IMG/VR virus record: IMGVR_UViG_3300029448_000115
Span: 1-39,553 of that record
Reading direction: 5' to 3' (one strand)
DNA: 39,553 nucleotides
Source of the DNA: a virus
Lineage: Duplodnaviria > Caudoviricetes
Shown here in pieces: positions 1,471 to 37,701 of the stretch; position 1 is the first letter of the stretch, and each line of letters begins with the position of its first letter. A model generated the notes under the pieces. That model did not search any database and was not told the origin of the DNA. It was given only the letters and a program-made list of their open reading frames with translations. Both the position numbers and the translations under genes were made by a program.

Positions 1471-2493
1471 ATGGCTGTAACCTCTAGCATAGCATATTGT
1501 TCAGAGAGGGATTTATTCGATGTTTATCCACAAATAAAATCCGCAGATACAAAAACTCGGATTTTTGGCTGGGTAGTTCATAGCAGTAATTTATATAGAG
1601 CAGATAATACTGGTTTAGTAACGCAATTATTTGCAGATGGGCAAGATTTAGGCTCTGCTCAGGCAAATAGCGGAGCAGTTACTTCTAATGGTCAATGGTT
1701 TTATGAATCATCATTAGATGCTGTTTATTATTATAATAGTTCTGCTAGCCCCAATGATATGATTATGGAAGCTGGCGAAGATTTTGCTACATTAACGCAG
1801 AGATATAGAGAGAATGCTAGTAGGCACTTAGAATCACTATTAGATAGCAGGCTTGCAGCAGAAATCGCAAAAGATCGCGAAGGTAACTATCCATATATAA
1901 TTAAAAGAACTACGGCTTTAATAGCCATTTCTCAGCTTTTAAAGGGAGATGATCCTGCTAGTGATGTGGCTGATGCCTTTATGGAAGAAGCTACTGAGTA
2001 TATTACAGGGCTTAGAACTGGAGATATTCAGCTTCCTCATCAGGTAACAGGAGACTCGCCTTATGGTTTTATTAGAGATGTAACCTATACATCAGGAAAG
2101 GTTAGGCCTGTTCAGACAAGGGGCGTATATCAAGGAACTTATGATCTAATAAAAGTGGTAATTACTACTGCTGGAGCTATTGGATCAGGTAAATATTCTA
2201 TATATGAGAAGTCAAGTTCTGATCTTAAAGCTGTTTTAATTGTAGATGGCGAGACTATAAATGGAGATTTTCAGCAATGCGCTGGAGGTCTTGAAATACG
2301 TTTTGCTGGAGGAACAGACTCATCTACAGCTGCTATTAACGATGAATGGGAAATTGAGGTTCATGGCATTGGGGAGGATGTCAGGGCTAGTAAAACTGGC
2401 AATATAAATATGTCAAGGGGTGCGTACCATTTGCCGTTTAAACGCTATAAGGGCGGGTTTTTAAGAGCAGGGCATAGGAAAATTAGGTTCTAA
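1471..2493 (+). CDS. Head-tail adaptor/connector-like virion protein with inserted beta domains
   Basis: N-terminal AYCS..DL and a helical core (AS..LES.L...YPY.IK..TA.IA) typical of Mu gp36/gp6-type adaptors; lies before the tail genes. Confidence 0.55.
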   Translation: MAVTSSIAYCSERDLFDVYPQIKSADTKTRIFGWVVHSSNLYRADNTGLVTQLFADGQDLGSAQANSGAVTSNGQWFYESSLDAVYYYNSSASPNDMIMEAGEDFATLTQRYRENASRHLESLLDSRLAAEIAKDREGNYPYIIKRTTALIAISQLLKGDDPASDVADAFMEEATEYITGLRTGDIQLPHQVTGDSPYGFIRDVTYTSGKVRPVQTRGVYQGTYDLIKVVITTAGAIGSGKYSIYEKSSSDLKAVLIVDGETINGDFQQCAGGLEIRFAGGTDSSTAAINDEWEIEVHGIGEDVRASKTGNINMSRGAYHLPFKRYKGGFLRAGHRKIRF

Positions 2494-2942
2494 TGGCCTT
2501 AGTAAAAGATACTACTTACAATAATATTTTTTATGATAATGTTTTATCAAAACTTAGGTCTATTATTACTACTGATAGAGCCTGTAGCGTATATGTTGCG
2601 CCAGCATATCAGGATCAAGGCTCTTTTTCTATTCGTTTATGGGGAACAAGTTTTGAAACAGATCAATTATATCCTGATGCATTTAGGAAGCTATATAATA
2701 CTGAGATATCTATTTATGCACTTGGAGAAGATGGAGATGAAAGATTTTATGAGCAGTTATATAGTGATTCTGAAAGGCTTTATCAGCTTTTATTTAACAA
2801 TTCTAATTTATCGAGTGGCGATTATGCGTGGAAAGATGCTCAAGTTAGCGAGGTAATTTTTGATGATTTTGTAGGAGCAGAAGAAGATGTCGATAGCTTG
2901 CATGTGGCTCGATTTGCTTTTTCTTGTCGCATCACAAGGTAA
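2493..2942 (+). CDS. Putative tail terminator / head-tail completion protein
   Basis: 149 aa, immediately before the tail tube gene, terminal beta strand (ARFAFSCRI). Confidence 0.5.
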   Translation: MALVKDTTYNNIFYDNVLSKLRSIITTDRACSVYVAPAYQDQGSFSIRLWGTSFETDQLYPDAFRKLYNTEISIYALGEDGDERFYEQLYSDSERLYQLLFNNSNLSSGDYAWKDAQVSEVIFDDFVGAEEDVDSLHVARFAFSCRITR

Positions 2943-2969
2943 ATTAAATATAAATTAAGGAAACTTATT

Positions 2970-3170
2970 ATGGCAAATAATAAAAAAGTAGAAAAACAAG
3001 TAAAATATAAGGCAAATAAAACTTTTAAGGTTTTTGTGTCTGATAAAGGCTTATTAAGTGAGTCTCAGTATAAAAATTTATTAAAAGGTGAAGCAGTTTC
3101 TTTAAAAGATGTGCCTAAAAAACAAATGAATTATCTACTAACAAATAATTTAATTATTAAGGAGCAATAA
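2970..3170 (+). CDS. Hypothetical small basic protein
   Basis: AAGGA RBS, ORF fills the gap, start is repeated at 39479. Confidence 0.65.
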   Translation: MANNKKVEKQVKYKANKTFKVFVSDKGLLSESQYKNLLKGEAVSLKDVPKKQMNYLLTNNLIIKEQ

Positions 3171-3171
3171 A

Positions 3172-4191: not shown

Positions 4192-4218
4192 TAAATAATT
4201 AATCATAGGAGGGAAATT

Positions 4219-4518: not shown

Positions 4519-4523
4519 ATGGC

Positions 4524-4973: not shown

Positions 4974-7344
4974 ATTTCAGGCCAAAGGCATACAAAAGCT
5001 TAAAGGTCAATACAAAGATTTAGAGCGTAGAACAAAAGGCTTAGAGGGTAGCACAAAAGGGGCTGGCGGAGCAATGGGCGGAATGGTTGCTAAGCTTGGC
5101 CTTACTACTGTTGCTTTATATGCAGCATCGCGAGCTATCTCAGCTGTCGTTCGCGTTGGAAAAGAATTTGAAAAAAACATGTCAAATGTTGCAGCTATTA
5201 GTGGTGCGGCTGGGCAAGAATTAGCTGCTTTAGAGCAAAATGCTAAAAAGTTAGGATCAACAACTGTTTTTACAGCATCTCAAGTTGCTGGCTTACAAGT
5301 TGAATTTGCAAAATTAGGTTTTTCAAGTAAAGAAATTAGAGGTGTTACAAAAGGCACGCTCGCTTTAGCTTCAGCAACTGGATCAGAATTATCTATAGCG
5401 GCTGCTGTTGCAGGGCAAACACTTAGGGCTTTTGGATTAGATGTAAGCGAAACTGGAACAGTTACTGATGCAATGGCAGCATCTTTTTCTTCATCAGCTT
5501 TAGATATGGACAAGTTTGCAAATTCTATGCAATATGTAGCGCCTATTGCTAAGCAAGTTGGCTTTAGTGTTCAAGATACAACGGCAATTCTTGGAACGCT
5601 TGCAAATGCTGGTATAAGCGGATCAATGGCTGGAACAAGTCTTAGAAAGATTTTATTAGAGCTTGGAAATGAAAATTCTAAGCTTACAAAAAAGATCGGA
5701 TTTAGCGTAAAAAGTAGTGACGATCTGCAAAGAGCCTTATCTAAATTATCCGCTGAGGGTATTGGCACAGCGGAAATGAAAGAAATGGTAGGTCAAAGAG
5801 CAATATCTGCTTTTAACATTTTAATGGAAGGCACTGAGACTACAAAAGAGCTTACAACCGCTTTAAATGATAGCGGTGGAGCTGCTCAAAAAATGGCTGA
5901 TACCCAACTTGATAATTTAGAAGGAAAGACTACATTGCTTAACAGCGCTATGGAGGGGTTAGGCATTGTTATTTCAGAGCGTTTAAACGCTGGTTTAGTC
6001 GAGGTAACCGAATCATTTACAAGCTTTGCAACAAGCTTAACGAAAATTATAGAAATTCCATTAAGCAGTAAAATAAGAGAAGAGCAAATTGAGTTTAATG
6101 CGTTAATCGGGGCATTAAAAGATGTCAATATTAATCAAGAGTCTCGCCAAACTCATTTAAATACTTTAATGAGTAAATATCCGAATTACATTAAAAATTT
6201 AGATATTGAAAGCCTGTCTATAGATCAACTTTCTAAAATTCAAAAAACAGCTAATGATGAATTTCTAAGAAAGATAGAGCTAACTGCAAAAGAAGAAATT
6301 TTAGCAGAGAGAAAAGCGAAGATGTTAAAAGCTCAAATTGCTATCCAAGAACAAGAATTAATTGTTAATAAAGAAGTTGATGAATTTATGCAAGGCTTAG
6401 TTTTTGGGATGGTAGGAGAAATAGATACTAAAAAAGCTTCAAACGAAGTAGATGATTTAAAAATAAAAAGATTACAGCAATTAAGAGAAGATTCAGAAAG
6501 ATTGACAAAAGAATATCAAGCTGCGGTTGATGTTCTTGGGAAATATAAACAAGCCACAGATGAAGCAAGTGGATCAGTTGAAACCTTTGCTGGATCGGTT
6601 GAAGGCGCAGAAGGTGGTTCAGGTGGAGGCACGGAGGATAAAAAAAGTTTTCAAGATGAATTTACAAAACAAGAGCTGGCTATTTATCAGCAGTATTTAA
6701 GCCAAAGGAAGAGCATAACTACATTATCTCGCGAAGAAGAAGAAATAGCATTAGACACACAACATACAAAATTAAAAGAAATGCTTGAAGGTCAAGGCAA
6801 AGAATTAATAGCATTAGAAAAATTTGTTGCTGACTCAAAAGAGGCTATTGCATTAAAACATTTTAATAATATGATGGGCGTTTATTCTCAATTTGCTTCA
6901 GGATTTAGCGCGTTTTTGGGCGAATTTGCAGGAAGTCAAAAAGCATCCGCAAGGATGGCTCAAGTTGCGGCTACTATTGACACCTACGCAGCTGCAAACA
7001 CAGCATTAAAAACTGTACAACCTTATCCATTAAACGTAGCAGCCGCCGCAGGTATCGTTGCTTCAGGGTTAGCAAATGTTATGCAAATATCAAAAGGCAT
7101 TGGAGAGTTTAAAAGCGCAGAAACTGGTTATAGTGGTGTAGTAGATAGACCTACTATGTTTATGACTGGAGAAAATAACAAGGCAGAGCAAGTAAGTATA
7201 ACGCCACTTGAAAGCCCTAATATAGCAGGTGCAGAAGGCGGCGGAGGTATTACGATCAATGTTTCAGCTCCGCTAGTTGATGAAAGCATTATAGATTCAA
7301 TTTTACCAGCCATAGCACGCGCTCAACAGATGGAACTTGCATGA
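4945..7344 (+). CDS. Tail tape measure protein (TP901-family core)
   Basis: FEKNMSNVAAISGA, LGSTTVFTASQ, GISGSMAGTSLR, MADTQLDNLEG motifs followed by long helical Ala/Glu/Lys-rich sequence. Confidence 0.93.
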   Translation: MAEKLKQTIEFQAKGIQKLKGQYKDLERRTKGLEGSTKGAGGAMGGMVAKLGLTTVALYAASRAISAVVRVGKEFEKNMSNVAAISGAAGQELAALEQNAKKLGSTTVFTASQVAGLQVEFAKLGFSSKEIRGVTKGTLALASATGSELSIAAAVAGQTLRAFGLDVSETGTVTDAMAASFSSSALDMDKFANSMQYVAPIAKQVGFSVQDTTAILGTLANAGISGSMAGTSLRKILLELGNENSKLTKKIGFSVKSSDDLQRALSKLSAEGIGTAEMKEMVGQRAISAFNILMEGTETTKELTTALNDSGGAAQKMADTQLDNLEGKTTLLNSAMEGLGIVISERLNAGLVEVTESFTSFATSLTKIIEIPLSSKIREEQIEFNALIGALKDVNINQESRQTHLNTLMSKYPNYIKNLDIESLSIDQLSKIQKTANDEFLRKIELTAKEEILAERKAKMLKAQIAIQEQELIVNKEVDEFMQGLVFGMVGEIDTKKASNEVDDLKIKRLQQLREDSERLTKEYQAAVDVLGKYKQATDEASGSVETFAGSVEGAEGGSGGGTEDKKSFQDEFTKQELAIYQQYLSQRKSITTLSREEEEIALDTQHTKLKEMLEGQGKELIALEKFVADSKEAIALKHFNNMMGVYSQFASGFSAFLGEFAGSQKASARMAQVAATIDTYAAANTALKTVQPYPLNVAAAAGIVASGLANVMQISKGIGEFKSAETGYSGVVDRPTMFMTGENNKAEQVSITPLESPNIAGAEGGGGITINVSAPLVDESIIDSILPAIARAQQMELA

Positions 7345-9704
7345 GCTTAGCCTTACCAACTAATTACGCTTCTGCTTCCAAATCAGGCAATATTCAAGAG
7401 AATTGGATAGTTAGGCTTTATTATGATAATGAAGGCGCAAATGATTATACAGCTATTTCTTTAAATGATACTGTTGTTGAAGATGTTTTTTATCATGGAG
7501 TTATATCAAATGAACCTAAGATCAGAACAAATGTTAATGTTTTTGAGTCTAAGGCAAGCACATCTCAAATATCATTGACTATTATTAATTTTAATTATAA
7601 AGGTGTAAACTTTTCTGAAGAGCTTTTATATGGATCAAAAGCATACATAAATAGATCAGTAAAAATTTATTCTCAATTAAATGGATCAGCAGCAATTGCG
7701 GATTGCTTGCAATTATTTGAAGGTCGTTTTGTTGATATTTCACATGATAACGATAAAATTACATTGTCAATTGTAGAGCAGCGGCCGTGGGATTTCATCG
7801 AAATACCTAATCAAAGAACTGTTTTATCTAATAATCAGTTAGGCATTCCATCTTATTTTCCTGTAGCCTATGGCGATTTTAATGCAAATGTTAGTTATCA
7901 AGGTGCAGAAGCATTGTGCCATGCGAATATAAGCGGTCAAGATACTAATTTATACCCGATTCCTGTGCATACTTATGATGCTAATGAGTTTTTTTGCTTA
8001 GCGGCTGAGAGTGATGGCAGCAACACAGAAAACACCGCTGATAGTGTTACCCCTCATTTTTATGAGCCAAACATTGATTCTTTTATACCTCTTTTAAATA
8101 GCAGTGGGAATACATATATGAACAACACTGCTAGTTATCAAGGCGGCAACGCTATTAAAGCTCCTTTAACACTGTTTAGAGCTTTTAGATTTAAGCCAAC
8201 AGAGCTTGGAGGTAGTAACGCTTTTACTGAGGGGGATAGTGGCTATAATGCCTTTGATACACTTTTTGGATCATCAAGCACAGGTTCAAATATAACAACA
8301 GTATCAAATCATCCAGCAAAAGTACCCGATCAGCCTTTTAATCCTGATCAAGATTATACTGAGTCAGCTAATGGGTTTTATAATATGCCTAGTATTGATG
8401 GAAAAATTTTATATTTAAAAATTCTAATTACTGGCTATGCAACAATAAGAGCGGAGGCAAGCAACGTATCAATGTTTTTAAGCGTAACTGGTAATAATAT
8501 GCAAGGTAATTTAGCAGGCTTAACAATTGCAAACATTACTAGCGGAGCAACAAGCTCTGCGACTCTTTATCATCAGTCTTTTGGAGACACTGGAGCAGCT
8601 CAAACAGGTTCAGTAAGCGCTGGTACATTTACATCAGCAGACTTAGTAAGTACTAATTTTTCAACACAAGATTTTAAAATTAATGCATCCTATACATGGC
8701 AAGTAGGTACTGAGACAGATAGTAAAACAGGATCAACCGCAGGTAATGCTTATGTAAGCGATATTCATTATTTAGCAAGGACTAAACTTGAATTTGATAG
8801 CACAAATATGTCAGCAAACATAGAGCGTTTAAACAAGGTTAAAATGCTTTATACAGGTGCAAATGGATTAAATAAATCTTATACTGGAGGTAGCGGAACA
8901 GCTGGCAAGGGAATTGAAGCTCATCGCGATATGCTATTCAGGTACGCTGGTTTTGATGCTGCTGATGCTGCTATATATAACTGGGGAGCATCGACACCAA
9001 GCAGTGGATCATTAAATATTGCATCAGCAAGATCAGGTTGGAATATTACCTTTTGGCAATTAGAGCCAAGACCTTTAAAAAATATCTTGCAGCAATTACA
9101 GAAAGAATTTTGCTTTTGGTTTAAGTGGCGTGCGGATGGATCAGCTTCGTATTGGTATGTAAAAGATTCTTATTCTTCAAGCGATGTGAGCAATACTTTT
9201 ACATTAAGAGACATGGAGAACATTAAAATAAAAAATACAAGCTGGAAAGATTTAATTACTTTTTATGACGTTGAATATAAACGTCATCCAGCAAAAAACT
9301 CTAGGTATATAAAGTCTCTATCCAGTCAAGACTCTACAGCTAATGTAAGATCAGCATACAACATACAAACAAAAGAAAATAAAAAAAGCGTAAAACTTGA
9401 TATGAATATTAATAAAGCTGGCGCTGCTAATGTTGGCGCAGGCTCGCCGAATGATGGTTTCAGCAATTACTATTTAAATTTATCAGGTAAGGTGAGAAAA
9501 GTAATTTCTTTTAAAGCTGTTAATCCAGCTGCTGCTTATAATTTAGAAACTGGAGATATTATAAATTTTTCACCAACAGCAGGTGATATGCCTGTTAAGC
9601 CTTTTGGTCACGAATGGAATGAAAGCGGATCACAGTTCTACATGATTACCGATTTACAAAGATCAAGAGGCTCAATTAATATAACATGTTTGGAGGTTGG
9701 CTAA
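7341..9704 (+). CDS. Tail tip / baseplate hub-like protein
   Basis: 787 aa directly after the tape measure; FPVAYGDF motif; C-terminal LETGDII...YMITDLQRS hub-like end. Confidence 0.6.
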   Translation: MSLALPTNYASASKSGNIQENWIVRLYYDNEGANDYTAISLNDTVVEDVFYHGVISNEPKIRTNVNVFESKASTSQISLTIINFNYKGVNFSEELLYGSKAYINRSVKIYSQLNGSAAIADCLQLFEGRFVDISHDNDKITLSIVEQRPWDFIEIPNQRTVLSNNQLGIPSYFPVAYGDFNANVSYQGAEALCHANISGQDTNLYPIPVHTYDANEFFCLAAESDGSNTENTADSVTPHFYEPNIDSFIPLLNSSGNTYMNNTASYQGGNAIKAPLTLFRAFRFKPTELGGSNAFTEGDSGYNAFDTLFGSSSTGSNITTVSNHPAKVPDQPFNPDQDYTESANGFYNMPSIDGKILYLKILITGYATIRAEASNVSMFLSVTGNNMQGNLAGLTIANITSGATSSATLYHQSFGDTGAAQTGSVSAGTFTSADLVSTNFSTQDFKINASYTWQVGTETDSKTGSTAGNAYVSDIHYLARTKLEFDSTNMSANIERLNKVKMLYTGANGLNKSYTGGSGTAGKGIEAHRDMLFRYAGFDAADAAIYNWGASTPSSGSLNIASARSGWNITFWQLEPRPLKNILQQLQKEFCFWFKWRADGSASYWYVKDSYSSSDVSNTFTLRDMENIKIKNTSWKDLITFYDVEYKRHPAKNSRYIKSLSSQDSTANVRSAYNIQTKENKKSVKLDMNINKAGAANVGAGSPNDGFSNYYLNLSGKVRKVISFKAVNPAAAYNLETGDIINFSPTAGDMPVKPFGHEWNESGSQFYMITDLQRSRGSINITCLEVG

Positions 9705-10802
9705 ATGGCTAATGTAGAAATAAAAAATCCTAGATTTTATTGCGATGTTATCAGTTCACATATTGCAAAAGGCGTTGCTCAAAATAGTGAATTTGACGTA
9801 ACTGCTACAGGCAGCGGCTTTATTGGCTTACAAAACGGAACTGAGGCAGAATTGTTTGATAACAGACCTTTAAATCAGGTTGATTTTGATACATCAAATG
9901 ATACTGATGGACATGTTTTAATTACAATTGATCTTCAAACAGCTCATAGAATTAATTTTATAAGCATTTTAAATCACAATATGAAATCAGCTGATTGCAA
10001 AGTAAGAATATTTGCAGGGAATGAATCGTCAGATATTACTACTGTAGATGGAGGCGCTGCTGATACCTCAGATATAGACTGGAGCGCTGTTACATTGACA
10101 CAAGTTGTAAATGCAGATTATCTTGCTAATGATGGTGATTTAAAATCAGCAGTCGTACTTCCTAACGCCGATGGATCAACTGTTTTTACTTTTACAAACA
10201 CTAATCTTAGGTATTGGGGTATTCAATTTGAAGGTAGTACTACAGAAGGATCAGATACGTCTAAAGCCGCCCTTTTTGATGGCACGACAGATTTAAAAAT
10301 TGGATGTATTCAAATGGGGGCTTTTTATGATATGCCTCATTCGCCTGATATGACATTAGCAAGATCAATTAACTTTGATCAAAATAAAATATTTAAATCG
10401 TTAGGTGGTCAAAAATATGGACTTAGTACAAATCTTGGTAAGCATGCCAGCAGCACATCTAAATCACCATTTTTGACTACTGCTACAGCTTCTGATTCTT
10501 TTATGGGTAGAACGTCTTATGATTTAGCATTTAGCTACATTCAAGATACCGATTTACTTCCAGCAGAATACATAAATTTATCCTCCTTGCATACATCTAC
10601 AGATAGAAGCTTTATTATGGATGTTTGGAATGTAACGATGGGCAATTTATTGCCGTTTACTTTTTCTGTAGATAATAGCTCTGCTGGAACAAATGCTGAG
10701 TCTGAATTGATATTTGCAAGGTTTGATTCAAGCTCTATAGATATGAAGCAAATAGCTCACAAACTTTATAATATTAGATTAAAAATTACTGAGGAACTAT
10801 AA
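9705..10802 (+). CDS. Tail protein with carbohydrate-binding-like insert and Dit-like C-terminus
   Basis: ILNHN, LRYWGI, LKIG motifs; C-terminal SLGG..., YDLAFSY, LPF.F, YNIRLKITEE pattern; last gene of the tail operon. Confidence 0.55.
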   Translation: MANVEIKNPRFYCDVISSHIAKGVAQNSEFDVTATGSGFIGLQNGTEAELFDNRPLNQVDFDTSNDTDGHVLITIDLQTAHRINFISILNHNMKSADCKVRIFAGNESSDITTVDGGAADTSDIDWSAVTLTQVVNADYLANDGDLKSAVVLPNADGSTVFTFTNTNLRYWGIQFEGSTTEGSDTSKAALFDGTTDLKIGCIQMGAFYDMPHSPDMTLARSINFDQNKIFKSLGGQKYGLSTNLGKHASSTSKSPFLTTATASDSFMGRTSYDLAFSYIQDTDLLPAEYINLSSLHTSTDRSFIMDVWNVTMGNLLPFTFSVDNSSAGTNAESELIFARFDSSSIDMKQIAHKLYNIRLKITEEL

Positions 10803-10842
10803 GCCCAGCGGCGCGTTTAAACGGATTATCCCTCCGCCATTT

Positions 10843-11494: not shown

Positions 11495-11539
11495 TTTATT
11501 TCTCCTTATTTTCTTTAACTAACATCATAACCTATAACA

Positions 11540-11569
11540 ATTCTAACATATATTATATATACATGTCAA
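11540..11569 (-). promoter_or_regulatory. sigma70-type promoter TTGACA-N18-TAGAAT (extended -10 TGn)
   Basis: Minus strand reads TTGACA TGTATATATAATATATGT TAGAAT TGTTAT; same architecture as 17064, 18424 and 20006. Confidence 0.8.
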
Positions 11570-11638
11570 GAAATATTAAAAAATAATATAACAATTATTT
11601 TACTTGTTTTATTTGTTATATGTTTTATAGGTTGCAAT

Positions 11639-15104: not shown

Positions 15105-15406
15105 ATATTAAGTTAGGTTGTTTAAACGTTTTAAATGTCTTGATTTATCGGTCATTAACACGTACGGAGTGCTTTTTTTAAAGCTATTATTCTATGTCAT
15201 TATAACATATTATAACTATTCTAATTATTTTAAAATACTATGTCTTTATATTGTTATACTTACAAGATATGTACATGGCATATAACATGCATTATGTATA
15301 ATAGAGGGTGTATGGGGGTGATTGTACTATTGCCTGTGTGGGTAACCCAAATGCACAATATTAAAATATAACGTCAATTGAAAATGAACTTTTTTATAAT
15401 TAAGTT

Positions 15407-16296: not shown

Positions 16297-16316
16297 CTTA
16301 AAGCGTTTAAACAGCC

Positions 16317-16754: not shown

Positions 16755-17021
16755 TTAACCTCCATAAGCCTTTAAGTATAATTCAGCTAAACATTTTTTA
16801 TCATAATCTTCAACTGCTTTTTTAAGATCATCTCCATAATATTTCTTAGCTAATTTTTCAATAATTTTAATATCATCGCCAGCACTTTTGAACTTTGGCT
16901 GATAACTGATATACAAACTATGTAAATACTCAAGCAATGTCATTGGAGCAAAACCATATTCCTTGTCAATAATTATTTTATCGCCAACTATGCTTGCTGG
17001 AATACCTTGTAATCTTATCAT
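16755..17021 (-). CDS. Hypothetical protein (start corrected from 17057)
   Basis: GAGG RBS before ATG 17021, downstream of promoter 17064-17092. Confidence 0.65.
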   Translation of the reverse strand: MIRLQGIPASIVGDKIIIDKEYGFAPMTLLEYLHSLYISYQPKFKSAGDDIKIIEKLAKKYYGDDLKKAVEDYDKKCLAELYLKAYGG

Positions 17022-17063
17022 TTTTTCCTCACTTTTTTTATTAATAACCATAATCACATAACA

Positions 17064-17092
17064 AGTATAACAGTTATAACAACACTAAACAA
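17064..17092 (-). promoter_or_regulatory. sigma70-type promoter TTGTTT-N17-TATACT
   Basis: 17049-17093 is 38/45 identical to 18409-18453. Confidence 0.75.
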
Positions 17093-17100
17093 GAAAAACT

Positions 17101-17304
17101 TTATTTATTTTTAAAATATTTCATATCAAGTATTTGAACCACTCTAGGATCGCGCCGATCTTTTAAATATTTATTTAAAACAGCCTGTAGATCGCTAAAA
17201 AATTCTTTTAAGGTGTTACCTTTAGCATTAGTGAAATCAAAGCCGTGTTCAGTCTCATATTTGATCTCAGCATGGTATCTGAAATCATGGCCAACGCTAT
17301 CCAT
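17101..17304 (-). CDS. Hypothetical protein
   Basis: Overlaps the upstream gene; stops at the edge of the promoter cassette. Confidence 0.55.
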   Translation of the reverse strand: MDSVGHDFRYHAEIKYETEHGFDFTNAKGNTLKEFFSDLQAVLNKYLKDRRDPRVVQILDMKYFKNK

Positions 17305-18384: not shown

Positions 18385-18423
18385 TTTTTTAATTCCTTTA
18401 TTTTTTATCATAATCACATAACA

Positions 18424-18452
18424 ATTCTAACAATTATAACAATACCATGCAA
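18424..18452 (-). promoter_or_regulatory. sigma70-type promoter TTGCAT-N17-TAGAAT
   Basis: Minus strand TTGCAT GGTATTGTTATAATTGT TAGAAT TGTTAT with an A/T-rich UP region. Confidence 0.8.
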
Positions 18453-18472
18453 GTAAATAATTAATTTTTTTT

Positions 18473-18495: not shown

Positions 18496-18507
18496 TTTAC
18501 AGAGCGT

Positions 18508-19149
18508 TTAAACACTGGCAGCCGCTTTTATTATTGTTTTAATAGTAGCACCTACAACATCATGAGTCATTTCAGAGCCACATTGACCGCAGCTCGGCGC
18601 GCCTTTCAAGTACATTGTTTTGCTCATCCGAACAAAATAAGGCTCAAGGACACATTCAGGACATTCGATTTTTAAATTCCGAGTGCCTTGCTTTTTTCTG
18701 TTTATCTCATAATCCAGCTTTTTATGTGGGTACTTACCGATCTTAGACTCAATGCCTTTTATAATCTCTTTTAAGGCATCAGATTCGCCTGTGGCGGTCA
18801 TTTTACCAGTTAATCCACATGCAGTAGCCATTTTCTTAAAAGCGCCTTTGTGGCCACTTTTACAATCGTCAATGGCGTGGATCAATTCATGAACTAAAAC
18901 GCCAGCAACTTTTGTTACCTGAGATTTATCCAAACATGGATTAATAAAAATCTCATTTACTTTAGCCGCGCTGCACCTCCTAGCAAAACATTGTCCAATA
19001 GTTTTATTCTTGGACTTAGCTCCGCCTGAAGATGGAAAGCCGACACTTACTTTTACTTTTTTAAGATCAAGGTTGATTCCATTAGGCTTAAAAACCTGAG
19101 TTTTTAATTCCTTTGTCATCTCCCATAACCATGATTCTCTATTTTTCAC
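18508..19149 (-). CDS. SprT-like zinc metalloprotease with C-terminal zinc ribbon
   Basis: VLVHELIH...GHKGAF (HExxH plus third His), CPEC and CGQC; AGGAGG RBS. Confidence 0.85.
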   Translation of the reverse strand: MKNRESWLWEMTKELKTQVFKPNGINLDLKKVKVSVGFPSSGGAKSKNKTIGQCFARRCSAAKVNEIFINPCLDKSQVTKVAGVLVHELIHAIDDCKSGHKGAFKKMATACGLTGKMTATGESDALKEIIKGIESKIGKYPHKKLDYEINRKKQGTRNLKIECPECVLEPYFVRMSKTMYLKGAPSCGQCGSEMTHDVVGATIKTIIKAAASV

Positions 19150-19867: not shown

Positions 19868-20005
19868 ATTGATGCCTCCATTTTATTTTTAGAAGTTAAT
19901 TGATGATAATCTTTGGAGCTTTTTACCGCAGAAGAAGAAGCCTCGCCTGAGAGCAAAAGCAACAAATAAACCAAATATTTAAAAACAATCATCATATCTG
20001 TAACA

Positions 20006-20035
20006 ATTATAACATGTGTTATATATATAGTGCAA
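20006..20035 (-). promoter_or_regulatory. sigma70-type promoter TTGCAC-N18-TATAAT overlapped by palindrome TATAACA-TG-TGTTATA
   Basis: Consensus -10 with TGn extension; perfect 7-bp inverted repeat at 20008-20023. Confidence 0.8.
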
Positions 20036-20051
20036 GTAATATTTTTAAATA

Positions 20052-21412: not shown

Positions 21413-22740
21413 ATGATTTAGCGTTAGATTTAATTCAAGACTCTTTAAAAGAGCAGAAACAAATGTATGCCAAAGGGCGTAGAGATTCAATTTATAAATT
21501 ATTAGATTATTATGCTGGAGACAATACATCTCAATACATCGAAGATCGTTTTAGTACTGATGCATTTAGAGAAATTCCTGTTGGCGAATTTAATGTTACT
21601 CGCAGAATGATTGATCGCATGAGCCGCATATATACATTAGGCGCGCAGAGGAATGTTAATGATCGTTATGATTCAATGATATTAACAAAGCCTTATAAAA
21701 TGAAACACATGGAAAAAATGACTAGGCTTATTGGTACAATAGCAACGCAGGTGGTGTTTAAACAGGGTGCGAATCCGCATTTTAATTATAATCCTGTATA
21801 TTATTTTGATGCTTATTTTGAAGATGATCCTTTTACGCCCTCAGCAATTACTTATCCAATGGTGCAGAATGTTGTTGATGTTAGCGATGTAAATGCGTTG
21901 CAATATTGTTATTGGGATAAAGAATGTTTTATCAAGTATGATCAGGAAGGAAATATCCTTGATGAGCAAATGCATAACTATGGTATTTTACCTTTTGTGT
22001 TTACTCATAAAGAGCATCATTTAAATGAGTTTTTTGTAACTGGTGCTTACGATATCGTTGCAGCTAATGAGCAAGTAAATATTTTACTTACAGAAGCTGC
22101 GCTAGGAATGAGATTTCAAATGTTTGGTCAATATGTAATTGAGGGTATGTATGAAGAGGAAAATCTTATGCGTGCTGGATCATCTGAAATAATGATAGTT
22201 CCTGAAGGCGCAAAATTAGATATTAAAAGCCCTCAGGCAAATGTTCGAGAAGCAATCGATCTTATCAAAGCAATTCTTGATCTTACTGCTCAAAATAATC
22301 ATTTATGGATTACGTTTGCAGAGGATGGGAAAAGCGATAGGCCAAGTAGCGGTGTTGCGTTAAAAATTAAAGACTTAGAACGTTTTGAAGATTTTCAAGA
22401 TGACATAGAATTATGGGAATTATACGAAAAAGATTTATATGAAGTCGAAAAAATAATAGCAAGAGCAAATAATATTGCATTACCTGATGAGATTGGTTTA
22501 AAATTTAATGAGCCTGAATATCCTATGAGCGTTCAAGATCAGATTGCTATGGATAGTTTTTTATTGCAAAACAATATAATATCTCAAAAAGATTTAATGT
22601 TAAAGCATAACAAGCATTTAACTGATGCTGAAGCAAATCAAATTATAGAGAAAAATAAGGAAGAAAATGGTGAAGGAAGAGAAGTTGAGCAAGAACAGTC
22701 AGTATTTAATAGATTACTTAACCAAACTCCGCCAGCTTAA
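21409..22740 (+). CDS. Portal protein (SPP1-like)
   Basis: 443 aa directly after terL; YY.G, HNYGILPFV and SSGVALK motifs. Confidence 0.88.
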   Translation: MNDLALDLIQDSLKEQKQMYAKGRRDSIYKLLDYYAGDNTSQYIEDRFSTDAFREIPVGEFNVTRRMIDRMSRIYTLGAQRNVNDRYDSMILTKPYKMKHMEKMTRLIGTIATQVVFKQGANPHFNYNPVYYFDAYFEDDPFTPSAITYPMVQNVVDVSDVNALQYCYWDKECFIKYDQEGNILDEQMHNYGILPFVFTHKEHHLNEFFVTGAYDIVAANEQVNILLTEAALGMRFQMFGQYVIEGMYEEENLMRAGSSEIMIVPEGAKLDIKSPQANVREAIDLIKAILDLTAQNNHLWITFAEDGKSDRPSSGVALKIKDLERFEDFQDDIELWELYEKDLYEVEKIIARANNIALPDEIGLKFNEPEYPMSVQDQIAMDSFLLQNNIISQKDLMLKHNKHLTDAEANQIIEKNKEENGEGREVEQEQSVFNRLLNQTPPA

Positions 22741-24374: not shown

Positions 24375-24540
24375 AAAAAAGAAGCGAGGTTTATACGCTA
24401 ATATTCACGCAAAAAGAAAAAGAATAAAAGCAGGCAGCGGCGAAAGAATGCGTAAAGTAGGATTAAAGGGTTCGCCCTCATCTAAGGCGTTTAAACGTGC
24501 AGCGAAAACAACGAAAAAAAGAAGAAGGAAAAGAAGATAG
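24364..24540 (+). CDS. 58-aa very basic peptide (not in ORF track)
   Basis: GTG start; MATKKKKRGLYANIHAKRKRIKAGSGERMRKVGLKGSPSSKAFKRAAKTTKKRRRKRR*. Confidence 0.7.
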   Translation: MATKKKKRGLYANIHAKRKRIKAGSGERMRKVGLKGSPSSKAFKRAAKTTKKRRRKRR

Positions 24541-24955: not shown

Positions 24956-25223
24956 GCCAATTTCTGATAATAGCAGTTTAAACATATCACTACCTATGAT
25001 TATTCAAGCTGTAACATTTATCGTAATGCTTGTTTATGGATATTCACAGTTAAATGCTCGTATTAGTTTTCTTGAGTATCAAGTGGCAATGAATGAAGAG
25101 CATATTATAGATTTAGAAGAGGATGCTGAAAATAATCAAGATGCTGAAATACCAGCTGATATAAAACAAAATCAAAGAATTGAATATCTTGAAAGAGAAG
25201 TTGAGAGGCTTAGAGATCAATGA
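24942..25223 (+). CDS. Single-TM plus coiled-coil protein
   Basis: MIIQAVTFIVMLVYGY followed by an acidic coiled coil. Confidence 0.6.
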   Translation: MENTKPISDNSSLNISLPMIIQAVTFIVMLVYGYSQLNARISFLEYQVAMNEEHIIDLEEDAENNQDAEIPADIKQNQRIEYLEREVERLRDQ

Positions 25224-25489
25224 TAAAATATAGAGGCGTTAAATTCTCAGGATATAATAAGCCAAAAAGAACTAAAGGCCATAAAAAAAAATCGCATGCG
25301 GTGCTTGCAAAAGTTGGCAAAAAAGTAAAATTAATTAGGTTTGGTCAGCAGGGAGTTAGCGGTGCTGGTAAGAATCCCAAAACCAAAGCTGGTAAAGCTA
25401 GGCGCAGATCATTTAAGGCTAGGCATGCTAAGAATATTCGCAAAGGAAAGATGTCTGCTGCTTACTGGGCTAACAAAGTAAAATGGTAA
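25220..25489 (+). CDS. Conserved basic viral protein (IRFGQ / RRRSFKARH / SAAYW family)
   Basis: KKSHAVLAK, LIRFGQQG, SFKARH, SAAYWA.K.KW pattern familiar from aquatic viruses. Confidence 0.7.
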   Translation: MIKYRGVKFSGYNKPKRTKGHKKKSHAVLAKVGKKVKLIRFGQQGVSGAGKNPKTKAGKARRRSFKARHAKNIRKGKMSAAYWANKVKW

Positions 25490-26014
25490 TTGATGAAAGC
25501 AAAAAGAAACTATTCATATAAAAAAGCATCTCGATTAATTAATGGAATTATTTCAGAAACATTAACCGATATGGCTCGGTATCAAAATCAATCTATACAG
25601 CAAGGTATTGACACAAGTACAGATATTAACGGCAAAAAATTTAAAAAATTAAGTGAGGCCTCAACGCTGCCGATCAGGCAAAGGCGAATGCAAGGATTTA
25701 CTCCGCTTCAAACAATGAAAATTGGCAATATTGGAGCATCAGGAGCTGATCTTCAATCATCAAAATCATTAAGAGCGACAAAAATAATTAAAGCAAAACA
25801 AAGCAGTTTAATATCAAAAGTAATTATGGTTAATAAGCATGGTGTTTACCATAATCAAAAAGGGGGATTTACAACTGGTGGTATGATAAAAGGTGCAAAG
25901 GTAGAACAGCGTGAATGGTTTGGAATGACTAAAGATATGAAAGCAGGAGGCAGTCAGTATAAAAAATTTGTGAAAATGACAATGACCAAAATTAAAAATT
26001 CCTTAAAAAAATAA
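25490..26014 (+). CDS. Virion morphogenesis (Mu gpG / tail-completion S-like) protein
   Basis: G..FKKLS..T...R, GVYHN..G, V.QREWFG motifs; precedes MuF. Confidence 0.65.
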   Translation: MMKAKRNYSYKKASRLINGIISETLTDMARYQNQSIQQGIDTSTDINGKKFKKLSEASTLPIRQRRMQGFTPLQTMKIGNIGASGADLQSSKSLRATKIIKAKQSSLISKVIMVNKHGVYHNQKGGFTTGGMIKGAKVEQREWFGMTKDMKAGGSQYKKFVKMTMTKIKNSLKK

Positions 26015-27447
26015 TGGCTACATCTGAAGAATTAATTGCGTTATTTGGAGATGATTTTAACAATGTTTTAAAAGGTTTAAACGCTTTACCTATAGAGGTT
26101 CGTGAACTTTTAGATGGAACTATGAATAAAATGATTAGTGATGCTGATATTTTTTCACAAAGAATAAATAAAGCTGTAACAACGCAAAGAGCATCAGGTA
26201 TTAGTTCAGCGGTTACTACAGGAGTTCTAGCAACTGATATGGTTTCTGAAGGTGCAATTTTTGGAGAAATTCGAAACGCTATAAAAGAATCATTAGTAGA
26301 GGGAATAAATCAAACTGGCAGAGCTGCACAATATCAAGCTTATGATGCTGATGATAAAACGCTGTTTACATGGGTAACAGTTGCTGGCCATAAAATTTGT
26401 CAAGAATGCCAATGGAGATCAGGCCACCAAGCCACATTAAAAGAATGGGAATCTGCTGGTATGCCCGGAACTGGGTGGAGTGTGTGCGGTGGGCATTGTT
26501 ATTGTATTCTTGATCCTAGCGGTAAAATATCGCCAGTTGTGCAGGCTGAACAAGAACGCGCTAAATTAGTTCAACAAGGAAAACCACTTGAATCAAACTA
26601 TATAAAAGCGTATAAAGTCAAATCAGATCATAAATCTGCTTACAATAGATTTATGAAATTAGATTCATCAACAGCAATGGAAATGATGAAGCCTAAATTT
26701 AAAAAAGGGAAATTAGTTAGAGGGCAATTATCAAGAGCGCAAATACTTAGAGAAACTAATAGCGCAAGAAAGAAATTAAGTGTTAGTAAGCAATCTATGA
26801 ATAAACATCTTGTAAATGGTACATTAACAAAATCAAGAAAAAAGCTACATGATGACATAATAAATGAAATTGTAAATGGTGGGAAAGTTGCTAAAAAAGG
26901 CAAGCAGGAATTATTAACAACAGGAGGTTATCCCGGATCAGGTAAATCTACAATGTTAAATCAAGCTTTTCCGGGCTGGAAAGAAAAATTTGTGCATTTA
27001 GATGCAGATAGAGTAAAAGAATTATTGGCTAAAGCTGATGGCGTTGATTTAAAATGGCGTGCAGCGTTGTATCATGTAGAGTCAAAGCATGTAGTTAAAA
27101 TGATAACTAAGAGAGCAATCCAAGAGAATAGGCATATTTTATATGATGCAACAATGAAAAGTACGGATAAATTTATAAAGGCTATCGAGGGATATAAAAA
27201 TGCAGGCTATAAAGTAACAGGCGCATTTGCAGATTTACCAATAGAACAAGCAATGGAAAGAGCTATAGCAAGATTTTTTGGATCATCAGGAAGGTTTGTT
27301 GATCCTCTTTATATTTCAACGCATGGAAATCAAAACATTGCAACATTCAATGCTTTAATTGATAATGCATTGCTTGATATATGGACACAATACAGCACTA
27401 ACGTCCCAATTAATACACCAGCTTTATTTATAGATGGCTATCCTTAA
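26014..27447 (+). CDS. MuF-like minor head protein fused to a C-terminal Zeta-toxin-like P-loop kinase
   Basis: WVTV..HKICQEC...G...W...GMPG...CGGHCYC (MuF). Then R..LH..I, GGYPGSGKST Walker A, HLDADRVK, ILYDATM, ERAIAR...GRFV (Zeta/PezT). Confidence 0.85.
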   Translation: MATSEELIALFGDDFNNVLKGLNALPIEVRELLDGTMNKMISDADIFSQRINKAVTTQRASGISSAVTTGVLATDMVSEGAIFGEIRNAIKESLVEGINQTGRAAQYQAYDADDKTLFTWVTVAGHKICQECQWRSGHQATLKEWESAGMPGTGWSVCGGHCYCILDPSGKISPVVQAEQERAKLVQQGKPLESNYIKAYKVKSDHKSAYNRFMKLDSSTAMEMMKPKFKKGKLVRGQLSRAQILRETNSARKKLSVSKQSMNKHLVNGTLTKSRKKLHDDIINEIVNGGKVAKKGKQELLTTGGYPGSGKSTMLNQAFPGWKEKFVHLDADRVKELLAKADGVDLKWRAALYHVESKHVVKMITKRAIQENRHILYDATMKSTDKFIKAIEGYKNAGYKVTGAFADLPIEQAMERAIARFFGSSGRFVDPLYISTHGNQNIATFNALIDNALLDIWTQYSTNVPINTPALFIDGYP

Positions 27448-28076: not shown

Positions 28077-28613
28077 ATGAGTGAAGATACAAGTACAAAT
28101 GTAGAGCAGAGCGCTCAAACTACAGAAGCAGATAGCAATGTAGATTACAAGACATTATATCATCAGGAAGTTAAGAATAGTAAATCTCAGCGTGGGAAAA
28201 AACAAGAGCTTGAGTCAAAAATGGAGCAACTGGAATTAAAATCTGAGGAAGATCGACAAGCTAAAATGATCGCCGAAGGTAAAAAAGATGAGTTGCTGCA
28301 AGAACAATCAAGCAGATTAAAAGCCCTTGAAAAAGAGCTTGGATCGTTTAAACAGGCTGAGGATAGTCAGAAGGCTAAGTTGCTTGAGCAAATTCCTGAG
28401 GATGATAGAATGTATTATGAAAATATGAACATTGAACAACTCCAGCATTTTTTAAGTAAAAGCGCAGCGCAGCCTGTAAATCCTCCTGAGGCCGTACAAG
28501 GTAGATCAGTGGTCGATTCAAATATGAATGACTATATGAAAAAAGATACTAAGTACCAAAGGGATAATTACGCAGCTGTATTGCAAAAGTACGCGAAAAA
28601 TTCTCGGAGGTAA
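28077..28613 (+). CDS. Capsid scaffolding protein
   Basis: Acidic N-terminus and long coiled coil, directly before the capsid gene. Confidence 0.75.
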   Translation: MSEDTSTNVEQSAQTTEADSNVDYKTLYHQEVKNSKSQRGKKQELESKMEQLELKSEEDRQAKMIAEGKKDELLQEQSSRLKALEKELGSFKQAEDSQKAKLLEQIPEDDRMYYENMNIEQLQHFLSKSAAQPVNPPEAVQGRSVVDSNMNDYMKKDTKYQRDNYAAVLQKYAKNSRR

Positions 28614-29824: not shown

Positions 29825-30136
29825 ATGGCAATCAATCAATTTGGTACAAATGAAGCTCTAAATGTTCAACTAGGGCAAGCTGGAAGCGTTTATGAAAGCG
29901 GAACAACAGCAGTATCAGCTCCCACAGGAAAAAAAATTATAGCAATTATGGCCGTAGCAGATGCAGTTTTTGCTACCTTAACGCCTGAAAGTAATATCTA
30001 CTTTGGTAGAACTGGAACAGCATCAGAATATAATGGAGATGCTTTTTCTGATACGTTTAAACAAGGCGACTGGATATACGGCAGGTGGTCTAATTTCACA
30101 CTAAGCAGCGGTAAAATCGTTGCGTATTTCGGTTAG
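29825..30136 (+). CDS. Small beta-rich virion protein
   Basis: C-terminal G..IYGRW..F.L.SG..VAY pattern; AAGGTG RBS. Confidence 0.65.
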   Translation: MAINQFGTNEALNVQLGQAGSVYESGTTAVSAPTGKKIIAIMAVADAVFATLTPESNIYFGRTGTASEYNGDAFSDTFKQGDWIYGRWSNFTLSSGKIVAYFG

Positions 30137-30144: not shown

Positions 30145-30483
30145 ATGGCAGACCTACATAAAAGATCGGTACAGGAAGCAGCTAATTTAAGCGTTGGAGG
30201 CGGTTGGTCAGTAGCCACTGTTGCTACGCATGGAGGAACTTCAAATACTGATACAATACATTTTAGTTTAGATGAAAACGCGGCTCAAATAGGAGTTTAT
30301 AGCGCTGTTGAATTATATTTTAATTTTGCTACTGCTGCAACAGATGTAACAGTTGGCAATGATATGATCTTGCCAGCCAGTACGTTGGTTTTTATTGCAG
30401 TTCCTCGCGGATTAGGATCAACAGTTGTATTTAATCATTTAGGAAAAGGAGCAGCTGGCGCTGTTCGCATAGTGGAGATATAA
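30145..30483 (+). CDS. Small beta-rich virion protein
   Basis: AGGAG RBS; between capsid and fibre genes. Confidence 0.6.
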   Translation: MADLHKRSVQEAANLSVGGGWSVATVATHGGTSNTDTIHFSLDENAAQIGVYSAVELYFNFATAATDVTVGNDMILPASTLVFIAVPRGLGSTVVFNHLGKGAAGAVRIVEI

Positions 30484-30484
30484 T

Positions 30485-35698: not shown

Positions 35699-36034
35699 AT
35701 GAAAAACTATAAAGCCCTTAAAAGCAAATCGAAAGTTGCTGTAAAAAAAGTAAAGGTAGTAGATCAGGAAGCTGTAAAAGAGATTACTGATGAAAAAGGA
35801 AATATTGTAAGAAGAGCTGCTGTTGAGCAAAGCCATGAAGAATTGCAAGTTGTATCAAAAGTATTTGATTCTGCAACTGGCGAAGCTATGGCTGATCGCG
35901 TTGAATCTATGCAAGTTTCTGATCTTGAATCGCAAGTTTCAAGTTTAAAAACTCAAAAAGCAAACGATGCTAAACGCATTGATGATGAAGTTGCTGATCT
36001 TGAAGAGCTAGTTGCTGATCTAAAAAAATTATAA
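35699..36034 (+). CDS. Coiled-coil protein, fibre-associated candidate
   Basis: Adjacent to the fibre gene; FD..TGE then coiled coil. Confidence 0.65.
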   Translation: MKNYKALKSKSKVAVKKVKVVDQEAVKEITDEKGNIVRRAAVEQSHEELQVVSKVFDSATGEAMADRVESMQVSDLESQVSSLKTQKANDAKRIDDEVADLEELVADLKKL

Positions 36035-36058
36035 TAATAACAATCCTATGGAGGGAAT

Positions 36059-36304
36059 ATGAGTCAAGATAAAAAAGTGCAAGAAGAAGAACAAAAGCGT
36101 TCATATACTTGGAGAAGCGAAAAAGGGGAAGAGATCACAAAATCTATTGATGATCTTAAACCTGATGAGGTTTCTGCATTAGAGCGTTTAAACAATTTAA
36201 ATATGAATATTGTAAGGTTGAATGCAGAATTGAGTGATCTTTCTATTCTTGCTGAGCATTATAGTAAAATTGCAGAAAAGGCTTTTTTAGAAGAAGAGGA
36301 ATAA
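36059..36304 (+). CDS. Hypothetical coiled-coil protein
   Basis: GGAGG RBS. Confidence 0.65.
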   Translation: MSQDKKVQEEEQKRSYTWRSEKGEEITKSIDDLKPDEVSALERLNNLNMNIVRLNAELSDLSILAEHYSKIAEKAFLEEEE

Positions 36305-36588
36305 TGCTAGTTAGGAGATCATCAAAAGGCAAAAAGATTTATATCTTTAAGCCAAGAACAAAAGAAAATATCACTTACAAGTTTAGTGATAGTGAAGTTG
36401 TTTCTTTTGATGCTCAGAACAAAGCTTTTGTTGTTACAAGTGAGGGAGCGGTAATTAAAAGAACTAATTCTTGGATTACCGCTCAAACTACTTATGACAG
36501 TGAATGTAAAAAGCATTATAGCGACACTACTGGAAAAATTAAAGTGGGAGTGCATACGCTTGTAAATGGCGTTGCAACTAAATTATAA
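36304..36588 (+). CDS. Hypothetical protein
   Basis: TAATG coupling on both sides; C-terminus conserved in copy 1. Confidence 0.7.
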   Translation: MLVRRSSKGKKIYIFKPRTKENITYKFSDSEVVSFDAQNKAFVVTSEGAVIKRTNSWITAQTTYDSECKKHYSDTTGKIKVGVHTLVNGVATKL

Positions 36589-36992
36589 TGTTTATTGCTG
36601 TTGATCCTAAGAATTACATTTCAATACTACATCAAAATAGGCATTCTATATTTCCAATAGAAGAAGGAACTATTTTAGCTATCTTAAATGATTATAAATA
36701 TGTAGATGCTGAATGCGTTATATTAGATAATACAAATAGATTTGATGTCGGGTTTTGGTATGGTCTTGCTTTAGCCTATGGGTGGCAGATTGATATTATT
36801 AATTCTAAAACTTGGATGGATTATTTTGGGCTATACCCTGAAAACAAAAAAGAAAGGATTAAACACTGGATGAGTATTGCAAGACTTAGATACCCTATGA
36901 TGAAAGTAGATGAAACTAATTTTGAAGTGATTTTAAGCGCATGCTATTTGCATGATAAATTTAAAGCAGAATTAAACGCGAGTTTCGCATGA
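36588..36992 (+). CDS. Degenerate RuvC-fold protein, allele 2
   Basis: Same length and motifs as 76-480. Confidence 0.75.
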   Translation: MFIAVDPKNYISILHQNRHSIFPIEEGTILAILNDYKYVDAECVILDNTNRFDVGFWYGLALAYGWQIDIINSKTWMDYFGLYPENKKERIKHWMSIARLRYPMMKVDETNFEVILSACYLHDKFKAELNASFA

Positions 36993-37477
36993 ATAAATTT
37001 GATGATTTTATAGAACCATTAATTGAGCGCGAAGGCGGAGAAAAGATCATTGTCGATACTGGCGGTACGACAAAGTATGGGATCAGTGAAAAAGGTACAG
37101 GCCTTTCAGCTGATGAGATCAAAAGCCTTACAAAGAGGCAAGCTATTGAAATCTACCGAAAACATTACTATGTGCCATCGAAGTCTGATCGGCTGCCTGA
37201 GCATTTACAGGAAGCGTTTTTTGATAGCGTAGTAAATCAGGGCATTTCAAGAGCTACAAAAATTTTACAAGCAGCAGCAAACCATAAAAATAGCAAAGGC
37301 TCTAAAATAGCTGTAGATGGGCGCATAGGTAATCAGACGTTAAAAGCTGTACAAAATTTAGAAAGTGAGCGTTTTAGGGCATTTAGAGTGCTTCATTACG
37401 CACAAATAACATTAAAGCGCCCTGATAAATACGAAAAGTACTATTATGGTTGGTTTAGAAGGGCTTTATCGCTGTAA
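36989..37477 (+). CDS. GH108 endolysin, allele 2
   Basis: Three amino-acid differences from 480-968 (I/V, T/A, S/Q). Confidence 0.9.
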   Translation: MNKFDDFIEPLIEREGGEKIIVDTGGTTKYGISEKGTGLSADEIKSLTKRQAIEIYRKHYYVPSKSDRLPEHLQEAFFDSVVNQGISRATKILQAAANHKNSKGSKIAVDGRIGNQTLKAVQNLESERFRAFRVLHYAQITLKRPDKYEKYYYGWFRRALSL

Positions 37478-37701
37478 TGGATCAGGAATTTAAAAGCGTA
37501 GTGAAAGAAGTATTGGCAACACATACAACAAAATTAGAAAATATTGAAATGCAACTTAAAAGCATTGATAGTAGTTTAAAGTATAATATGGAGCGTTTAA
37601 ACAGAGTAGAAACAGATCAAGCTTTTATGAAAGGCATGGGCGTTTTTATTGGCTCTATACTTAGTATTTTTATTGGATTAGTAGCATACATAGGAGCTTA
37701 A
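37477..37701 (+). CDS. Holin/XhlA-like candidate, allele 2
   Basis: Homolog of 968-1192. Confidence 0.55.
   Translation: MDQEFKSVVKEVLATHTTKLENIEMQLKSIDSSLKYNMERLNRVETDQAFMKGMGVFIGSILSIFIGLVAYIGA

Follow-up and report, generated by a model that had tools for sequence, protein, structure and literature searches.

Short exact words repeated many times along a DNA molecule are known from both bacterial chromosomes and phages. HIP1, Chi, matS and DNA uptake sequences are words of host chromosomes and are read by host proteins. In the stoperator systems of cluster A mycobacteriophages, represented by L5 gp71 and Bxb1 gp69, the sites are 13 bp long, asymmetric, oriented and mostly intergenic, and they are read by a helix-turn-helix (HTH) repressor of temperate phages. 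Here we describe an iterated word in the IMG/VR virus record IMGVR_UViG_3300029448_000115 (Caudoviricetes), whose whole stretch of 39,553 nucleotides is called the window below. It contains 15 copies of the 8-bp palindrome GTTTAAAC together with a gene for a SprT-like protein of the zincin fold. The word is a real, selected and element-encoded signal, likely read by the phage's own SprT-like protein.

With HIP1, Chi, matS and uptake sequences the word shares an exact, short, iterated form that is written into genes at coding cost; unlike them, it is confined to a mobile element and tracks an element-encoded gene. Common with stoperators are a (putative) phage-encoded reader and many dispersed exact sites, some of them at the reader's own promoter. 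It differs from stoperators in that the sites are 8-bp palindromes, which have no orientation, and are mostly intragenic, in that the reader would be a predicted protease, and in its presence in integrase-free elements and plasmids.

The closest described proteins are the DNA-dependent metalloproteases SPRTN (Spartan) and Wss1 and the SprT-like family PF10263, which have in common with the window protein the zincin fold, an HExxH motif with a third histidine, and a small cysteine-rich domain behind it. SPRTN and Wss1 recognise DNA structure, not sequence; here, in contrast, a fixed 8-bp word is written across the element and covaries with a C-terminal segment of the protein. A preprint assigns a SPRTN-type architecture to the homologue from cluster AZ (bioRxiv 2025.05.26.655371). 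ArdC of plasmid R388, a functional analogue in which a DNA-binding domain is combined with one of the zinc-metalloprotease type, shields incoming DNA against restriction by the host; it reportedly binds single-stranded DNA without sequence preference, its anti-restriction effect is independent of protease activity, and its domain order is the reverse of that of the SprT-like protein (PMC7213743). Profile searches of the window protein and its homologues gave no match to the ArdC family. We know of no iterated site for ArdC.

A protease aimed by DNA sequence was not found described. No link of the word to phages or SprT-like proteins was found in the literature searched, from which subscription journals were mostly absent and in which the supplements of the cluster AZ preprint and of PMC7302621 might mention the repeat. 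PMC7302621 lists repeats of other Microbacterium clusters, and its main text, as far as accessible, contains neither "TAAAC", "TTTAC" nor "SprT". In the available parts of two other papers, phage SprT-like proteins are mentioned without DNA sites (PMC7824862, PMC12363180).

The window comprises about 36.5 kb of tailed-phage genome and a further 3 kb of diverged overlap, and its gene content includes terminase, capsid, tape measure, fibre and endolysin. The viral record is given as 100% complete and of linear class. Profile searches of the window's open reading frames (ORFs) detected no integrase, none of its 65 ORFs matched a methyltransferase family, and no cultured relative with more than 30% terminase identity to the window phage was found. 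The end copies (1-3040 and 36513-39553), earlier taken for an end repeat, are only 78-92% identical per 250 bp, and the right one is 94%, the left one 84% identical to the relative L036/L047. This divergence and unequal closeness suggest that they are probably two strain alleles joined in assembly rather than a true terminal repeat. The label "adaptor" given to the ORF at 1471-2493 found no family match in profile searches. The 15 copies of GTTTAAAC are:

2436..2443, in a 340-aa ORF; missing from the other end copy (P-F-K-R vs P-Y-N-R)
5981..5988, in the tape-measure gene
8827..8834, in a 787-aa ORF; retained in 3/3 aligned relative loci
10815..10822, intergenic, past 9705-10802
15120..15127, intergenic
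16305..16312, intergenic, with convergent genes on either side; adjoins a terminator-like hairpin
18506..18513, overlapping the stop codon of the SprT-like gene
21756..21763, in a 443-aa ORF past the terminase; retained in 10/13 aligned relative loci
24489..24496, intergenic
24976..24983, in a 93-aa ORF; missing in 7/7 aligned relative loci (recent gain or chance)
26075..26082, in a 477-aa ORF
28346..28353, in a 178-aa ORF ahead of the capsid gene
30055..30062, in a 103-aa ORF
36186..36193, in an 81-aa ORF
37595..37602, in a 74-aa ORF (phrog_1193); missing from the other end copy (E-R-L-N-R vs T-R-L-N-K)

Every coordinate given for the word by a sequence-only reading of the window proved exact, and there are no further copies. 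That reading had expected one or two copies by chance; Markov models of orders 0-4 predict 1.0-1.6, and under orders 3 and 4 GTTTAAAC ranks first among all 8-mers. As had also been noticed, 13 sites extend to CGTTTAAAC and ten to GCGTTTAAAC on one strand, and both coding and non-coding DNA is used: ten sites lie wholly within ORFs, in two reading frames, four are intergenic and one covers the stop codon of 18508-19149 (-). The twelve one-mismatch duplexes have only 0-7 copies each, the word thus being exact. An enzyme that cuts this word is known as PmeI. The excess survives the codon-shuffling check that had been proposed, with ten sites in genes against means of 0.91 (codons pooled genome-wide) and 1.14 (per gene), and none of 500 protein-preserving synonymous shuffles reached ten in either scheme. 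Codon or dipeptide bias is thereby ruled out as the cause. A composition artefact is excluded as well, the excess being seen also in genomes of 63-72% GC. A promoter or terminator element does not account for the word in the window either: a consensus scan showed no excess over shuffles (64 vs 69.7; 9 vs 8.9), and the look-alike early promoters of the window carry a different repeat, not GTTTAAAC.

Spacing of the sites is more even than random, with a coefficient of variation (CV) of 0.57 (P=0.019) on a linear and 0.53 (P=0.011) on a circular map. The longest gap, 6131 bp, indeed holds the fibre gene, and the fibre gene of the relative G002 is free of sites too. Each end copy holds one of the 15 sites, at non-homologous places, which rules out end duplication as their source; both arose with amino-acid changes. 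The 15 loci with a terminase at least 90% identical to that of the window hold 43 sites against 3.7 expected, and 12 short loci at 79-83% terminase identity hold four against 2.2. At about nine places relatives carry a site that the window lacks, and some of these sites were made by amino-acid changes. The excess, the relatives and the gained and lost sites back the claim of a cis-signal under selection, whose individual sites turn over while their density is kept up. What the sequence-only reading missed was the signal's likely partner, the SprT-like gene, whose stop codon lies over the site at 18506. Its features are:

18508..19149, minus strand, SprT-like zincin gene of 213 aa, the likely reader (PF10263 and phrog_6361 matches, fold, co-occurrence with the word)
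18850..18891, minus strand, zinc-protease motif H87-E88-x-x-H91 ... H100
18670..18696, minus strand, basic segment KKQGTRNLK, residues 152-160 with Arg157, the predicted DNA-reading element (from covariation)
18580..18663, minus strand, C-terminal four-cysteine zinc-ribbon-like domain, residues 163-190

The product matches PF10263 with 27 bits, above the curated cut-off of 25.6, and 92/99 homologues match this family at E<=0.05. H87, E88, H91 and H100 are invariant in 99/99 homologues and intact in 104/104 dereplicated ones. The protease domain is N-terminal and is followed by a linker, then by KKQGTRNLK and the four-cysteine domain, in which C163 is invariant and C187 and C190 nearly invariant across homologues. 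In a structure model of the whole protein (pLDDT 94), residues 2-121 match SPRTN best (VIA; 6mdx, Z 8.1, rmsd 3.3, 100 aligned), tied with abylysin (Z 7.5) and selecase (Z 7.3), with Wss1 also among the best fold matches; the top Foldseek match is again SPRTN (6mdw, E 3.3e-3). The C-terminal 73 residues reach a pLDDT of 42 in a single-sequence fold and whole-model fold searches barely cover residues past 139, and we claim no fold for the reader part. Zn_ribbon_SprT (PF17283) was not among the 25/30 families listed for the 99 members (Atlas 0.78, a lead only). Profile searches of the window protein and homologues matched no HTH, and 44 long homologues scanned against Pfam contained no informative fused domain.

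A homodimer of the SprT-like protein is predicted with a score of 0.66 (best of three controls 0.01; runs agree on at least 91% of contacts, pLDDT at least 81), a mark that was reached by 20/30 solved pairs and 1/23 single chains. The named predicted interface takes in both zinc-ribbon domains; residues 151-157 and 160 are not named in it. The predicted homodimer fits a two-fold reader of a palindrome, the binding itself being inferred.

The word travels with the gene. In the complete IMG/VR records that carry the gene the word occurs 13, 14, 8, 21, 15, 18 and 0 times (the zero belongs to G016, discussed below), against 2, 1, 1 and 1 in four complete relatives without it. Among cultured phages with the gene, GTTTAAAC occurs 16 times in Pan1, 20 in R26L, 6 in MQ-4, 7 in Mica, 4 in Persinger and 5 in ECO1230-10, while others with the gene use the one-base variant GTGTAAAC: Zeta1847 (22), Emotion (17), Lizalica (24), UNTPL (39) and 4A (13). 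In several Streptomyces loci both spellings are about equally frequent. Dismas, CN1 and Epa43 possess the gene and have neither spelling. Eight further cultured relatives were fetched before their counts were known; the two with the gene have eight and six GTTTAAAC, the six without it 0-3 of either word. When the data are pooled, site density is at least 0.9 per 10 kb in the 20 complete genomes that have both the gene and Arg157, and at most 0.67 in ten complete relatives lacking the gene, a comparison whose rows are not independent and which omits incomplete records and four genomes with an altered reader.

The association was also approached from the word, by scanning 12/64 parts of the collection with a 14-bp extension of it, which gave 125 loci, 74 of them with at least 4 kb of DNA. 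Among these 74 viral loci the gene is present in 15/27 with extra sites (P<0.001) and in 0/42 without, five being intermediate. The whole records of the 12 enriched but gene-less loci showed that two have the gene, nine are only 18-40% complete and one (G021) lacks it. The gene occurs in 0/15 non-enriched whole records, six of them complete.

The sequence-only proposals included a host methyltransferase mark and a nucleoid or packaging site. More broadly, uptake and Chi-like sites added, the word would be a motif of the host chromosome, or a signal for packaging, that the phage mimics. The phage does appear shaped by host enzymes, as several 6-bp palindromes are missing from it and GATC is enriched. 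Still, we consider this explanation highly improbable. In three actinobacterial genomes 18/44, 21/53 and 29/36 sites fall within the 31, 62 and 40 kb around the gene, and the word is rare elsewhere, which for these three genomes speaks against the mark, nucleoid and uptake versions. Phages infecting E. coli, Dinoroseobacter, Streptomyces and other unrelated hosts, at 32-72% GC, have the same word, and relatives without the gene have the 0-3 sites mentioned above. A packaging role is unlikely, since a plasmid with conjugation genes has 18 sites and the gene.

Four of the 73 plasmid records with a homologue were examined. A 31-kb Magnetospira plasmid has 18 sites against 0.4 expected, evenly spaced (P=0.02), the three others have 2-3 sites per unit against 0.04-0.09, and in all four a site lies within the SprT-like gene itself. 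Across 67 loci, 22 have a site at most 150 nt upstream of the gene, against 4.9 expected; such sites often adjoin -35 or -10-like boxes, and the window phage has none in its own promoter region. Spacing is singly more even than random (P<=0.05) in 10/17 genomes.

Residues of the SprT-like protein covary with the word. Where Arg157 is kept, 62/89 homologues come from enriched loci, 16 from weakly enriched and 11 from non-enriched ones; where it is lost, 0/14 are enriched, with the sampling limits weighed below (G008 was left out, a contig end splitting its gene). The 14 Arg-less rows comprise a betaproteobacterial clade of nine, L256, Dismas, CN1, Epa43 and G016, and occupy about five places on a quick tree of the protease domain, in which 59/101 inner branches are open. 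In a clade of homologues from Polynucleobacter and other betaproteobacterial contigs (L259, L266, L270, L273, L279, L283, L289, L291, L293, L297, L298, L305) the protease motif is kept, the basic reader segment is replaced and the word is absent. Over a length of 30.9 kb, G015 and G016 share 78% identity; G015 has QSTRMLK, 18 GTTTAAAC and no CTTTAAAG, whereas its sister G016 has QATYLIK, no GTTTAAAC and 15 CTTTAAAG, with CTTTAAAG also upstream of the SprT-like gene. L204, with QPTR, has nine ATTTAAAC and five ATTTAAAT against 0.34 and 0.16 expected. These two spelling switches are the strongest evidence that the SprT-like protein would be the reader. No residue that separates users of GTTTAAAC from those of GTGTAAAC is evident by eye.

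Another gene could be the reader, with the SprT-like gene only travelling along. G021, with six sites and no gene, and the 11/89 homologues with intact Arg157 at non-enriched loci agree with this. However, the pair is carried by siphoviruses, myoviruses and plasmids with differing gene sets, and the spelling of the word tracks residues within the SprT-like protein, which leaves a different reader very improbable.

G016 contains neither GTTTAAAC nor GTGTAAAC. An inserted gene of 145 aa, missing from G015 (L128:16374-16811, minus strand), combines a GIY-YIG-like N-terminal part with a copy of the old reader, QTTRML. The putative nuclease part shows a GIY-YIG-like motif and scores 0.89 in the Atlas, a lead only, and has no match in Pfam or NCBIfam. 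A search for relatives of the fusion gave, apart from the fusion itself, a single one at 85%, which comes without context. Were the product a nuclease directed against the old word, this would account for the purge of GTTTAAAC from G016, in this single case.

Taken together, the 15 palindromes very probably serve a sequence-specific, dimeric zincin protease as docking sites. Just as strong is the expectation that the SprT-like dimer binds GT(T/G)TAAAC directly, and the protein is probably proteolytically active. We suggest that the phage's own protein, as the predicted homodimer, would recognise the word with its pair of C-terminal zinc-ribbon segments, by which a likely active zinc protease would be held on the phage DNA every 2-3 kb. 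The tethered protease might then cleave host proteins as they load onto this DNA or travel along it, candidate targets being restriction translocases, SMC-type defences and silencers. In many relatives the site in the gene's own promoter may add negative autoregulation, a site that the window phage lacks. Even spacing, intragenic sites, the lack of a window integrase, the plasmid pattern and a catalytic site that is never lost (104/104 homologues) point to a tethered protease that covers the element as a whole, rather than to promoter control. For a role in guarding the element's DNA against host DNA-tracking or DNA-coating proteins we see the chances as evenly divided, and the same holds for docking, dimer and guarding taken as one whole. 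The anti-defence tag listed in the sequence-only reading is still a candidate and comes close to this explanation.

The protein could instead dock on the word while its zincin site acts on DNA, by nicking or modifying it. The nuclease YbeY, of zincin fold, is among the fold matches (Z 5.0-5.9), and an exact word with even spacing resembles the nick motifs of some phages. Yet proteases (SPRTN, abylysin, selecase, Wss1) lead the fold matches, and a promoter-overlapping site suits binding better than cutting; action on DNA is in our opinion very unlikely.

Gene control by the same reader and sites, as a stoperator-like repressor whose zincin would serve self-cleavage or the cutting of a partner on induction, appears to us rather unlikely, though it has several observations on its side. 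The excess of sites in the gene's own promoter region is one of them; in the window, however, no site overlaps any of four look-alike leftward promoters, with about 45 bp between the nearest site and the -35-like box downstream of it, and 10/15 sites are intragenic. In Lizalica, Zeta1847, Mica and Persinger the integrase is found close to the SprT-like gene, but no integrase was detected in the window and the plasmid shows the full pattern. The asymmetric variant is strand-biased in three to four of five genomes (actinophages Emotion 15/17, Zeta1847 16/22, Lizalica 17/24); UNTPL has no bias (23 vs 16), and the bias may merely reflect a stop codon within GTGTAAAC. Sites gather near the gene in larger genomes. 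According to the cluster AZ preprint, Liebe, with a frameshift, is clear and Maureen turbid, and the cluster has no known repressor (bioRxiv 2025.05.26.655371). If the regulator explanation is true, the system is a variant of the stoperator kind.

Several results weigh against docking by a guarding protease. G021 (L422, L423) is 94% complete and has six GTTTAAAC with no detectable SprT-like homologue. G012 (56% complete, two sites vs 1.95 expected) and G010 (64% complete, three vs 1.2) have Arg157 and hardly any excess, and in total 27/89 Arg157-bearing homologues are weakly enriched or not at all. Nine of the 14 Arg-less rows form one chromosomal betaproteobacterial clade and one search pattern held the Arg motif, favouring Arg-bearing rows, so the Arg157 counts are neither independent nor unbiased. 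In the larger genomes G011, G014, G027 and G028 the sites are not even and gather in the part that holds the gene. A protein made after entry could not protect the DNA in the first minutes, and the promoter-overlapping site and clear-plaque Liebe fit a regulator equally well.

With some hesitation, and leaning slightly towards doubt, we extend the proposal to a widespread and so far undescribed system: phages and plasmids may mark themselves with an 8-bp address every few kilobases, to which a dimeric, sequence-specific zinc protease that destroys tracking host defence proteins is directed, the address itself becoming a target of an arms race. G016 would then have rewritten its sites to CTTTAAAG and re-tuned its reader, and its GIY-YIG-like fusion would cut competitors that use GTTTAAAC.

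If true, a large family known until now only as "SprT-like protease" acquires a function and a target on DNA; it has 4027 representatives at 50% identity (E<=0.001), with 164 cultured-phage and 73 plasmid records. It goes against the rule of thumb that phages avoid palindromes, and it implies selection on a DNA word strong enough to alter proteins. A natural specificity switch is available, and laboratory phages carry the system (E. coli phage Bas97, which has six sites and a laboratory K-12 host, Arthrobacter cluster AZ, Dinoroseobacter R26L). A reader of 50 residues, re-tunable and specific for 8 bp, may serve as a tool.

The composition of the window bears on the same rule. In its genes CTTAAG, CATATG, CTGCAG and GAATTC are absent, and CCGG is depleted. 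GATC is in excess (197 vs 137-144 in shuffles), and RGATCY is nearly missing from the window (AGATCT 1, GGATCC 0, AGATCC 1). Avoidance of many 6-bp palindromes and of CCGG suggests a host with several restriction systems. GTTTAAAC is an exception within this palindrome-avoiding genome.

Other repeats and domains were noticed alongside. A stand-alone reader domain of about 50 aa, with no protease part, is encoded directly upstream of a SprT-like gene at L156:9620-9868 (+). The terminase relatives G003 (L134, L135) and L030, without the SprT-like gene, have another enriched word, AAAGTACGAGA, and in G003 AAAGTACG occurs 18 times against 1.7 expected. G015 (L140, L141) and G016 (L128, L129) contain a second iterated word, CTANCTA(C/T), with 73 and 75 matches; Bordetella phage CN1 has nine. 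A second cluster, of seven GTTTACAC sites away from the known gene, lies in the Arthrobacter genome at G048:C4:1365980-1384732 and possibly belongs to another element.

The four leftward promoter look-alikes of the window lie at 11534-11580, 17015-17112, 18418-18464 and 20000-20046; besides boxes of the TTG(A/C)CA and TATAAT types they contain repeated copies of TAACAATT/TGTTA motifs, which form a regulatory repeat distinct from the word. An 89-aa ORF at 13235-13504 matches only the N-terminal HTH of replication initiators, and no full initiator was seen. Among the head genes, the region 25220-27447 holds a small ORF with a weak match to minor head proteins, followed by the 477-aa ORF, which has a C-terminal Zeta_toxin/AAA_33 kinase-like domain.

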